Source: Escherichia coli (lineage in GTDB: Bacteria > Pseudomonadota > Gammaproteobacteria > Enterobacterales > Enterobacteriaceae). From it: 64,000 nucleotides of DNA. Location: NCBI RefSeq assembly GCF_003018255.1, contig NZ_CP027440.1; one strand, given 5' to 3'. The notes beneath the pieces are model-generated. The model was not told the origin of the DNA. It made no database searches and saw only the letters and a program-made list of their open reading frames with translations. Shown piece by piece: positions 56,708 through 58,992 of this stretch. The translations under genes and the position numbers were made by a program. Within the stretch, counting starts at the first letter, position 1, and each line of letters begins with the position of its first letter.

Positions 56708-56740
56708 AAAACGCCGACCAGTGGTCGGCGTTTTGCTTTT
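56708..56740 (+). terminator. Rho-independent terminator of the rpsF-priB-rpsR-rplI operon
   Basis: Hairpin cgccgacca-gt-ggtcggcg (56712..56730) followed by ttttgctttt. Confidence 0.85.
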
Positions 56741-57048
56741 AAGTGATAAAAACCGCAGAAACAGACGTTCCCTCCATAAATCTCTTGCTATTCCTTTTAT
56801 AAAAAGTTCGCAGTACCCATACCTGGCCCCCAGCCTCGCCGCTGGTAGTTCGTGTCATGTTTTTTACGCGTAAAACACGACAAAAGCATCAATACAGCGA
56901 TCGTCTCACTTGTATGATAATAAAAACAATATGTTATATATGAATGTGCTGTTATTTTATTGTTTTTATATATAAAAAGATAAAATACCATCACTTTCGT
57001 AATCTTGAACGCTTTGCAGGTGCGTTCAATCCAATAAATGCTAATATT

Positions 57049-57065
57049 ATGGCTATCATAGCCAT
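57049..57065. promoter_or_regulatory. Candidate operator: 17-bp perfect palindrome upstream of the HTH gene
   Basis: atggctat-c-atagccat with 8-bp perfect arms, 23 bp before the HTH start codon; function inferred. Confidence 0.4.
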
Positions 57066-57087
57066 AAAAAGATAAAATATTATCACT

Positions 57088-57579
57088 ATGGGTAAAAAAA
57101 CAGCACCGTTACTCCCTTATACGAATCAGATGCTTAGTGAATTTGGTGAGCGGCTGAAACTTGCTCGTTTACGACGCAGGCTTACCGCAAAGCAAGTTGC
57201 TGAACGTGCTGGGATGTCGCCAATAACATTGCGCTCTCTGGAGTCAGGAAGTGCAGGGGTCACGATAGGGGCATATTTGTCTGTGATGCAGGTTTTGGGC
57301 CTGGAAACGGATTTAAATAAGCTTGCAGCTGAAGACGACTTAGGGCGTCAGCTCCAGGATTCCCGTTTGATTAAAAAAAGAGGGCTTTCTCGTGCATCAA
57401 GTAAGAATGAAGAAGGTTCTCAGACAGCCTCATTGCAGATGAGGCACGAGAAAGAAGGTCATCTCACCACGGATTTAACAGCACTGGCAGAAGGCTCGAC
57501 GCCATCTATTACAGGAGAAACATCAACCTCTCTTGCAGCACTATTAAAACCGATAAAAAAACCGTTAAAAGGAAATTAA
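57088..57579 (+). CDS. XRE-family helix-turn-helix protein with extended Ser/Thr-rich C-terminal tail; putative HipB-like antitoxin/repressor
   Basis: ORF track 163 aa; N-terminal region ([32 protein letters not shown]) has the XRE/Cro-type HTH pattern; stop lies 2 nt before the kinase start. Confidence 0.7.
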
Positions 57580-57581
57580 TT

Positions 57582-58850
57582 ATGGCATTAATCGGAGTGT
57601 ATGCGGATTGGGAAGGCCTGGATGGTCCGGAGCGGATTGGTTATTTACACAGTCGCCGCACTCGGACGCGTGAGATATTTGAGTTTGAGTACGATAAAAA
57701 GGCGCTTGCAGATCCTTCACTTAATTTCATTCAGTTAGATCCTGAAATAATGTTGTATGAGGGAGCACACTACCCAATTCCTCCAAAGGATAAATTTGGT
57801 GCATTTAGTGATTCCTGCCCGGATCGTTGGGGGCGTATGCTAATGAAGCGTCGTTTTGAGAGGGATATTCGAGACGGGTTATGTGATAAAGACTCCCACC
57901 TTTATGAGTCTGATTATCTACTAGGTGTTCATGATCTTTATCGGGTTGGGGCCCTTCGATACAAACGTGAAGACGCTGGAGAGTTTCTTGATAATCGCAT
58001 TGATGTTGCAGCCCCACCATTTACCGAAATAGCGAGTCTGGAAAGGGCTAGCCGGGCAATTGAAGAAGATCCTGATAATAAAGAGCTAATGGGGCAAAAA
58101 TGGTTAAGAATGCTAATCGCTCCGGGGGGATCATTAGGGGGGGCACGTCCGAAAGCCAGTGTTGTTGATGAAGCTGGGCATCTCTACATCGCTAAATTTC
58201 CCAGTGTAAAAGATGAGTATGATGTTGGTGGATGGGAAATGGCCGTTAATGCACTTGCTGTTGGCTGTGGACTGAATGTTGCACCTGCTCAGGCGCATAA
58301 ATTTGCCAGCAATTACCATTGTTTTATGGTTCGTCGTTTTGACCGCACTAATGCGGGAAGGCGTCTGCATTTTGCTTCGGCTATGACACTAACCAGGCAT
58401 CAGGATGGTGAAGATGCCTCTACAGGTGTGAGTTATCTGGAATTAGCAGATGTTCTTATCAGGCATGGCGCGCAGACTAATACTGATCTTAAGGAACTCT
58501 GGTCCAGGATTGTTTTTAATATTCTTGTTTCTAATACCGATGATCATTTACGCAATCATGGATTTATCTTGATACCAGGAAAAGGTTGGCGGCTTTCTGA
58601 GGCATATGATTTGAATCCTGTGGTCAGGTCTGATGGTTTAAAACTCAATATTACGGAAAATGACAATGCACTTGATTTGGAATTAGCTAGAGAAGTTGCA
58701 GAGTATTTTCGACTTAGTTTGACGGAAGCTGATGACATTATTGCTAATTTTAGAGGGATTGTCAGTCAGTGGCGAATCATTGCCGAGCGTCTGAGATTAC
58801 CTGGTCGTGAGCAAGAGTTAATGGCAGAGGCATTCAGAGCGTCAATTTAG
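57582..58850 (+). CDS. HipA-family serine/threonine kinase (putative toxin)
   Basis: ORF track 422 aa; HipA-like motifs GGARPK (res ~186-191), NTDDHLRNHG (res ~318-327), AYD (res ~341-343) and N-terminal SDSCPDRWGR resembling the HipA N-subdomain; RBS aaaagga. Confidence 0.75.
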   Translation: MALIGVYADWEGLDGPERIGYLHSRRTRTREIFEFEYDKKALADPSLNFIQLDPEIMLYEGAHYPIPPKDKFGAFSDSCPDRWGRMLMKRRFERDIRDGLCDKDSHLYESDYLLGVHDLYRVGALRYKREDAGEFLDNRIDVAAPPFTEIASLERASRAIEEDPDNKELMGQKWLRMLIAPGGSLGGARPKASVVDEAGHLYIAKFPSVKDEYDVGGWEMAVNALAVGCGLNVAPAQAHKFASNYHCFMVRRFDRTNAGRRLHFASAMTLTRHQDGEDASTGVSYLELADVLIRHGAQTNTDLKELWSRIVFNILVSNTDDHLRNHGFILIPGKGWRLSEAYDLNPVVRSDGLKLNITENDNALDLELAREVAEYFRLSLTEADDIIANFRGIVSQWRIIAERLRLPGREQELMAEAFRASI

Positions 58851-58948
58851 AATAGTTATTTCGATATATTCGCTAAATCATAAATTTGCGAAGCAATGCC
58901 AGTAGATACTGAACGTTTTGGAAGAGACGTTTAATTTATGAGAAAAAT

Positions 58949-58981
58949 AGAAACGCTACAAAGCTAAATTATAGCGTTTCT
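58949..58981. terminator. Perfect 10-bp stem hairpin between convergent kinase gene and MFS gene
   Basis: agaaacgcta / tagcgtttct with 13-nt loop; T-rich run follows on the minus strand, so probably the MFS operon terminator. Confidence 0.55.
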
Positions 58982-58992
58982 ATGTAAAATAA

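Follow-up and report, generated by a model that had tools for sequence, protein, structure and literature searches.

What is the long C-terminal tail of a HipB-type antitoxin for? The question is raised by a pair of genes in the stretch of Escherichia coli DNA analyzed here (64,000 nucleotides (nt) of contig NZ_CP027440.1, RefSeq assembly GCF_003018255.1; hereafter, the window) that encode a HipB-like protein and a HipA-family kinase and are separated by 2 nt, both on the plus strand:

57088..57579, plus strand: hipB-like antitoxin/repressor gene, 163 amino acids (aa), WP_000516891.1; an open reading frame (ORF) with an ATG start and a RefSeq coding sequence
57582..58850, plus strand: hipA-family Ser/Thr kinase gene, intact, 422 aa, WP_001562534.1; Pfam HipA_C, E 3.4e-47

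A sequence-only reading of the window had described the helix-turn-helix (HTH) protein as about twice the size of canonical HipB, which agrees with the 88 aa of the K-12 protein (2wiu_B; NF007271 profile length 88), and had suggested for its Ser/Thr-rich tail a possible role as kinase substrate, as pseudosubstrate or as degradation tag. The evidence described below leads us to favor, with slightly better than even confidence, a different answer, namely, that the tail is a disordered leash with a HipA-docking anchor helix that also makes free HipB labile. The best explanation of the hipB-like ORF is that it encodes HipB, acting as both antitoxin and autorepressor, in a large subfamily of HipBA kinase toxin-antitoxin modules on which hardly any experimental work exists.

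Anatomy of the tail

The regions of the protein were compared in an alignment of 82 diverse HipB family members (A3), with conservation expressed as the mean top-residue frequency per region, and in an AlphaFold model of HipB alone that was built from 82 sequences and scored by the predicted local distance difference test (pLDDT):

57088..57138, plus strand: N-terminal arm, residues 1-17, top-residue frequency 0.68, residues 1-9 predicted coil
57139..57312, plus strand: XRE/Cro-type HTH domain, residues 18-75, top-residue frequency 0.82, Pfam HTH_31 E 6.6e-11 and HTH_3 E 2e-6
57313..57375, plus strand: conserved helical extension, residues 76-96, top-residue frequency 0.62, predicted helices 73-81 and 84-94, pLDDT 72-79
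57376..57507, plus strand: hypervariable disordered linker, residues 97-140, 27% Ser+Thr, top-residue frequency 0.18
57508..57552, plus strand: conserved C-terminal motif, residues 141-155, top-residue frequency 0.46, consensus [GS]GF[VI][ST][SA]xxLAxL[LI]xP
57553..57579, plus strand: basic C-terminal cluster, residues 156-163 (IKKPLKGN), and stop codon, top-residue frequency 0.24

The stretch after the HTH has a three-part anatomy (the helical extension, the linker, and the motif with the basic cluster after it), and the tail proper is residues 97-163. Neither this anatomy nor the conserved motif near the end, which is the informative feature, had been noticed in the sequence-only reading. 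That reading had called everything after the HTH low-complexity and Ser/Thr-rich. The description holds for residues 97-163, which contain 9 Ser and 8 Thr (25%, vs 14% in residues 1-96), have a hydrophobic content of 18% (vs 32%) and are predicted to be disordered, but it holds neither for residues 76-96, which form a conserved extension of the fold in which D83, G86, R87, Q90 and D91 are invariant across the 82 sequences, nor for the motif at 141-155.

The disorder prediction that the same reading had suggested as a check gives pLDDT values of 44-54 across residues ~100-140 in the model of HipB alone, and the linker stays below 50 in a model of HipA fused to HipB (see below). In a crystal of a 62%-identical homologue from Pseudomonas fluorescens 2P24 (PDB 9u9g), just 77-85 of the 153 residues are modeled per chain, so that the C-terminal half is invisible and the helical extension is seen at most in part, as would fit either disorder or the proteolytic loss of a disordered region. 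By both measures, the C-terminal region of free HipB is disordered. Across the family, the tail ranges from about 50 to 230 aa, the linker varies in both sequence and length, and the tails also contain much Ala, Arg, Pro and Lys and few aromatic residues.

The motif is conserved in a specific pattern. Leucine occupies position 149 in 80 of the 82 sequences and position 152 in 77; position 153 is Leu or Ile in 79, and position 150 is Ala in 58. Position 145, which immediately precedes a predicted helix at 146-150, is Ser, Thr, Asn or Asp in 74 sequences (Ser or Thr in 63, Asn or Asp in 11), and these four are the classical helix N-cap residues. Because Asn and Asp are tolerated, and Asn cannot be phosphorylated, the T145 column is better explained as a helix N-cap than as a phospho-acceptor. 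An alternation of Ser and Asp at position 148 was considered as a phospho-mimic and ruled out, given that Ala, Thr, Glu, Gln and Lys are also found there. The motif lies 6-27 residues before the C-terminus among family members, nearly all of which have a Lys/Arg-rich end after it. Many relatives also have a D-W pair a few residues upstream of the motif, and the E. coli tail is without any Trp.

Proposed docking of the motif on HipA

Thirty natural HipA/HipB pairs were set out as HipA-(GGGGS)6-HipB fusions (A2), and the E. coli fusion was folded, yielding a mediocre model with a mean pLDDT of 65.7 and a predicted template modeling score (pTM) of 0.63. The motif, with pLDDT 65-67 in HipB alone, reaches 68 (HipB 139-148) and 80 (HipB 149-158) in the fused model, where DSSP marks HipB 144-145 as a strand or bridge two residues long that precedes the helix at 146-150. 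Because HipB has no other strand, we infer that the partner of this bridge resides in HipA. We rate the fused model as weakly supportive of a contact between the motif and HipA.

Under the favored scheme, HipB residues 1-96 would dimerize, bind inverted repeats that overlap the hipB start and, presumably, contact HipA, whereas the tail would serve as a flexible, positively charged leash. The terminal helix, F/V-x-[S/T N-cap]-xxx-L-A-x-L-L-x-P, would fold upon docking into a hydrophobic site on HipA, and the docked helix would either raise the affinity or occlude the kinase function of HipA. Once bound, the motif would be hidden from proteases, and free HipB, with its ~67 exposed disordered residues, would be quickly degraded, a lability that would give rise to the toxin-antitoxin behavior.

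Natural variants of the tail in E. coli

Two E. coli/E. albertii hipB alleles differ at 16 nucleotides within codons 97-128 (57376-57471), with a nonsynonymous divergence (pN) of 0.155 and a synonymous divergence (pS) of 0.208, that is, pN/pS of ~0.75 in the linker. The same two alleles show pN 0 and pS 0.014 in codons 1-96, pN 0 and pS 0.035 in codons 129-163, and pN 0.007 and pS 0.060 in hipA. To judge from these values, the linker codons are near-neutral and a local divergence hotspot, and the last 35 codons are protected; codons 97-128 could represent either such a hotspot or a stretch, limited to the linker, that was exchanged by recombination long ago.

Two homopolymer runs where the linker begins are sites of natural tail loss:

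57373..57384, plus strand: A7 run (57373-57379) and GGG run (57382-57384) at which natural -1 frameshifts remove the tail

The frameshifted, tail-less products are 117 or 129 aa long. In strain RS218, deletion of a G in the GGG run makes hipB tail-less, and the 117-aa allele P0025 is, as worked out by hand, a -1 frameshift at the A run. The kinase gene has been inactivated independently in ST131 (-1 at 58086), Nissle 1917 (+1 after 58136) and CT265 (-1 at 58657), and further in two Logan assemblies (a nonsense mutation at codon 169 and an ~800-bp deletion). The complete genomes of ST131, Nissle 1917 and CT265 retain an intact hipB despite the dead hipA, and both Logan assemblies with a dead hipA carry a tail-removing frameshift in hipB. 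Tail-removing frameshifts are found beside a dead hipA in 2 of the 3 alleles, RS218 being the exception. Such a pattern would be expected if the tail is of consequence for as long as the kinase is active, but three alleles prove nothing.

Alternative roles of the tail

Several observations weigh against docking on HipA. The contact partner of the motif is derived from DSSP and pLDDT only; the gain in pLDDT is modest, and the 30 input pairs are all at least 61% identical overall to the E. coli fusion. The extreme C-terminus doubles as the hipA ribosome-binding site, which may explain part of the nucleotide conservation, but this site cannot explain the LAxLL motif that lies 30-50 nt further upstream. 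The older assembly of RS218 combines a tail-less hipB with an apparently intact hipA that differs by R18W, a combination that, if correctly assembled, would make the tail dispensable. A tail-less HipB of 96 aa pairs with a 412-aa HipA in Limnohabitans, and removal of the K-12 HipB tail left the affinity for HipA unchanged (PMC3376134).

One alternative to docking, which we consider unlikely, is that the tail is primarily a degradation tag, in which Lon or ClpXP recognizes the disordered stretch and the hydrophobic motif with no specific HipA contact and thereby sets the half-life of HipB. Lon recognizes exposed hydrophobic stretches in a disordered context, and the window tail is predicted to be disordered, its homologous part being invisible in 9u9g. 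In K-12 HipB, the last 16 residues are a Lon degron that destabilizes green fluorescent protein (GFP) (PMC3376134), and by this analogy a degradation-tag role of the window tail is plausible. A degron alone, however, would have no need of a helix precisely built from an N-cap, an L-A-x-L-L core and a terminating Pro, or of a limited spacing to the C-terminus, conserved from Enterobacterales to Burkholderiales, and the ordering of the motif in the fused model speaks against a tail that is a degron only. The degron and HipA-docking roles are compatible and may coexist.

A proposal that we put forward only tentatively, with the same low expectation, is that the helix is an inhibitory element on a long leash, aimed at the active site or the Gly-rich loop of the kinase. 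This would be a third mechanism of neutralization, next to that of K-12 HipB, which locks the HipA dimer far from the active site, and that of HipS in the tripartite HipBST systems, which inserts a Trp. If such an inhibitor were at work, the length of the leash, which varies greatly even from one E. coli allele to another, would serve to tune the threshold of kinase escape.

It appears rather improbable that the motif and the basic cluster bind a partner other than HipA, such as DNA, another HipB dimer or a cellular hub. A basic tail could raise the affinity for the operator or bridge both operator pairs, and a bridging element of long reach would fit the four candidate operator sites described below, whose two pairs are 92 bp apart; moreover, the Lys/Arg cluster always follows the motif and is kept even in homologues of 104-115 aa that are devoid of the linker and the motif. 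Conversely, a beta-bridge such as that of the fused model calls for a protein partner that has strands, the motif is hydrophobic rather than basic, and loss of the tail tracks loss of hipA in 2 of the 3 alleles.

The role that the sequence-only reading had named first, with the Ser/Thr-rich tail as a HipA substrate or pseudosubstrate that is phosphorylated to regulate neutralization or fills the substrate site, is more doubtful again. The partner is indeed a Ser/Thr kinase with intact catalytic motifs, the tail is a quarter Ser and Thr, T-S-T-S-L-A-A in the motif loosely resembles the Gly-rich loop G-G-S-L-G-G-A of HipA, a position that we take to be that of the autophosphorylated Ser of K-12 HipA, and a pseudosubstrate would also show as a conserved docking motif. 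The distribution of Ser and Thr argues otherwise. The linker Ser/Thr positions are unconserved, and the conserved part of the tail is a hydrophobic helix; in family tails, Ser+Thr content has a median of 19% and a range of 8-32%, with the E. coli allele ranking 11th of 82, so Ser/Thr richness appears to be a trait of the window allele more than of the family. The sole conserved Ser/Thr position, 145, is filled by Asn or Asp in the 11 sequences noted above, as is typical of helix N-caps, and 24 of the 82 sequences have Ala at position 146; there is also no likeness to the KMSKS-type loops of known HipA/HipT targets beyond an unconserved G-L-S-R in E. coli. The Ser/Thr richness seems to reflect what disordered basic linkers ordinarily contain rather than an array of phosphorylation sites.

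That the long hipB ORF arose artefactually, through a frameshift (the outcome that the sequence-only reading had named as refuting), a misplaced start or read-through beyond the end of a short HipB, can practically be dismissed: the databases contain some shorter entries (117-129 aa) and some that begin at M15, but the short ones are -1 frameshifts of the window hipB sequence at the A7 or GGG run, whereas the full-length frame, the N-terminus and the in-frame C-terminal motif are all kept across genera, and a hipB of 140-200 aa is directly followed by a hipA of 405-440 aa in 59 of 80 related loci taken from species-representative genomes. On these comparative data, the ORF is genuine and full-length.

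The hipB start and candidate operators

The same reading had left two start codons in play, of which 57088 stands and 57130 falls. The N-terminal region around K4-P10 is conserved in all homologues, and the crystallized 9u9g construct of 153 aa begins at the same Met, which validates the start at 57088; the internal start M15 (57130) was rejected because this residue is Leu in other genera and the preceding 14 residues are conserved. Within the N-terminal arm, K4, T5, A6, P7, L8 and P10 are invariant in alignment A1, and the arm could contact DNA or HipA. K-12 HipB has no counterpart of this arm before its HTH.

In line with what had been noticed from the sequence alone, no Shine-Dalgarno sequence precedes either ATG, at 57088 or at 57130. 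The region upstream contains four matches to GTGmTAATATTwT, at 56946(+), 56982(-), 57038(+) and 57074(-), which form two inverted pairs 92 bp apart; a pattern search of the remaining 64 kb yielded six other matches of equal quality.

56946..56994: distal operator candidate, inverted 13-bp pair (56946-56958 plus strand, 56982-56994 minus strand), found by pattern search and as inverted repeat I1
57038..57086: proximal operator candidate, inverted 13-bp pair (57038-57050 plus strand, 57074-57086 minus strand), found by pattern search

The second half-site of the proximal pair ends 1 nt before the hipB ATG. Across genera, the distal half-site is present at -47/-48 in 62 of 79 loci and an ATG-abutting half-site at -11/-12 in 50 of 79, and the arrangement is kept from Serratia to Pseudomonas and Burkholderia, a conservation that points to these inverted sites being the HipB operator. 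A perfect 10+10 palindrome, TTATGGCTAT-C-ATAGCCATAA, is located at 57047-57067 between the proximal half-sites; its right arm is unconserved in other genera, such as Serratia, and it looks specific to E. coli.

A manual reading of TAAAAT at 57073-57078 as a -10 element would set the transcription start ~3 nt before the hipB ATG, and a reasonable hypothesis is that the E. coli hipB message is leaderless or near-leaderless. A sigma-70 consensus scan called no promoter directly 5' of hipB, so the leaderless idea rests on the manual reading only. The module may, then, use a leaderless or Shine-Dalgarno-less message with a start that is covered by its own operator.

The hipA gene has a Shine-Dalgarno sequence of its own, which the basic-cluster segment of hipB overlaps:

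57569..57573, plus strand: hipA Shine-Dalgarno AAGGA, within hipB codons 161-162, 8 nt 5' of the hipA ATG

The last hipB residues, K-G-N, may be under a dual constraint, as protein and as the hipA Shine-Dalgarno. The conserved inverted sites overlapping the start and the repeated loss of hipA beside an intact hipB in E. coli lineages are only indirect signs that the window HipB may neutralize HipA and autoregulate the operon.

The kinase, the locus and the family

In the 422-aa kinase, Pfam HipA_C covers residues 184-397, and the protein contains the motifs GGSLGGARPKA, DDHLRNHGF and AYDLNP, none of which varies among the 30 pairs of A2. In the alignment of the fused model, its identity to the K-12 and Shewanella HipA is 16-19% over about 455 columns. 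By sequence, it is nearest to the HipT structures and the YjjJ/HipH model, far below the cut-off. The pair is not a tripartite HipBST: no third ORF lies in the 2 nt between hipB and hipA, and the kinase aligns over its full length with HipA structures, in contrast to the short, ~335-aa HipBST kinase that lacks the N-terminal subdomain.

The HTH domain, which the sequence-only reading had rightly confined to about the first 75 residues, has pLDDT 89-96, and Foldseek matches the model to the HipB structures 9u9g, 8ezt, 3dnv and 4pu7, with a template modeling (TM) score of 0.92 to 9u9g_A. The protein scores well below the curated HipB models, namely, 17.1 bits against a cut-off of 79 for the NF007271 equivalog and 30.3 against 71.65 for TIGR03070 (couple_hipB); it is not, therefore, an equivalog of K-12 HipB and belongs to a separate subfamily. 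The benzoate regulator PRK08154, RmrA and CapH (NCBIfam/PADLOC) were rejected as identities, with similarity limited to the HTH and far below the cut-off, which accounts for some misleading database names. RefSeq names WP_000516891.1 'helix-turn-helix domain-containing protein' and WP_001562534.1 'type II toxin-antitoxin system HipA family toxin'.

In the window, rpsF-priB-rpsR-rplI is followed by an AT-rich spacer of ~400 bp, then hipB, hipA and a convergent gene for a major facilitator superfamily (MFS) transporter. A terminator-like hairpin of 12 pairs with a T-run lies 3' of rplI at 56708-56734, and another, a minus-strand call of 15 pairs, occupies 58947-58983 between hipA and the MFS gene, so that the two bracket the hipBA module. 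The pair is carried by ~1040 of 5426 complete E. coli genomes (about a fifth).

The window HipB has 2362 homologues at E <= 1e-3, and its family comprises 2340 clusters at 50% identity. The hosts include Salmonella, Serratia, Yersinia, Pectobacterium, Erwinia, Pseudomonas, Azotobacter, Burkholderia, Achromobacter, Stenotrophomonas and others, and nearly all homologues are 150-200 aa or longer. The usual hipB-hipA junction among related loci is a 4-nt overlap. In Limnohabitans sp. B9-3 (locus L081, 4001-4291), the HipB of 96 aa ends just past the conserved helices and precedes the HipA; other short homologues, of 104-115 aa, keep only the basic cluster after the helices, with the linker and the motif gone. 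A profile search for the tail motif alone in 5.8 billion proteins gave 4 matches and no new context for the motif: two E. coli hipB fragments, one contig-edge hipB fragment beside hipA and one orphan ORF in Rhizobacter. The latter, in Rhizobacter sp. OV335 (locus L090, 3001-3156), encodes 51 aa with the tail motif DWIEKHGFISAEALAALLD, has neither an HTH nor a kinase nearby and is probably a relic of a deleted hipBA module.

Comparison with known systems

The closest protein of known structure is the P. fluorescens 2P24 HipB (9u9g, released 2026-04-01), which belongs to the same subfamily, is 62% identical over the modeled part and matches the window HipB with a phmmer E of 9.5e-31 over residues 1-99, including the same N-terminal arm. 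It differs in having a shorter linker and, in the visible part of the tail sequence, a variant of the Pseudomonas type, ...PSEFHWNNLVSV... The literature searched contained no paper on this HipB, and no HipA complex has been deposited for it.

Mechanistically, the nearest parallel comes from Shewanella oneidensis MR-1 HipB (4pu3/4pu4/4pu7), in which the C-terminal tail is disordered both when free and on DNA, whereas in the ternary complex G95-W96-Y97 are ordered in a hydrophobic pocket of HipA, an ordering that the authors proposed to shield HipB from proteolysis (PMC4150777). A tail that is disordered when free and ordered by HipA is the very mechanism proposed here for the window HipB. The Shewanella protein, however, ends at residue 97, with its last three residues as the anchor, whereas the window HipB has a leash of ~45 residues, an internal L-A-x-L-L helix as the anchor and a basic cluster after it, and the HTH domains share only fold-level similarity (Foldseek E about 1e-2).

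K-12 HipB (3dnv, 2wiu) resembles the window protein in being an HTH antitoxin and repressor encoded upstream of hipA, with several upstream operator sites and an unstructured C-terminus, but the phmmer E is only 0.4, and the operator sequence differs. Its last 16 residues are unstructured, required for degradation by Lon and shielded by HipA; how it restrains HipA has been a matter of debate, since the surface that it shares with HipA is remote from the active site and Evdokimov and Hansen disagree on what the HipB C-terminus does (reviewed in PMC3376134). The K-12 tail of 16 residues ends at Trp88, whereas that of the window HipB has 67 residues and ends with the helix motif and the basic cluster; among the features of a K-12-type Lon degron, the unstructured stretch is present in the window HipB, and a terminal Trp is not. 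Classical type II antitoxins of the Phd, CcdA, RelB and MazE type also combine an N-terminal DNA-binding domain with a disordered C-terminal segment that folds on the toxin (PMC3376134), but in these most of the segment wraps the toxin, whereas the tail of the window HipB is mostly an unconserved spacer with ~13 conserved residues.

Long HipBs and similar C-terminal ends are on record. The accessible part of Table S1 in Gerdes et al. 2021 lists several clade-I HipBs of 87-107 aa that end in [IL]-D-[IL]-D-x-h-h and basic residues (e.g., ...ELRDLASLIESYERGDE), resembling the D-L-A-S-L-L-K-P variants of the window family, and includes a HipB of 206 aa; the text of that paper does not take up long HipBs. 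None of the peptides diagnostic for assigning the window kinase to a Gerdes clade occurs in that part of the table. Papers on HipBA of A. citrulli and K. michiganensis deal with different HipA clades and leave the tail undiscussed.

The question of what the HipB C-terminus does is made testable by a long tail with a sharply defined terminal motif, in a subfamily that is also present in many Pseudomonas, Burkholderia, Serratia and Yersinia genomes and at a locus that offers natural experiments, that is, an intact hipB with a dead hipA in ST131 and Nissle 1917, and the tail-less hipB alleles. No new kind of system is implied. Compared with the known HipB proteins, the tail is an elaboration of a known theme, in that the leash is about four times as long, the anchor is an internal helix and not a terminal Trp, a basic cluster is added and the protein belongs to a separate subfamily.

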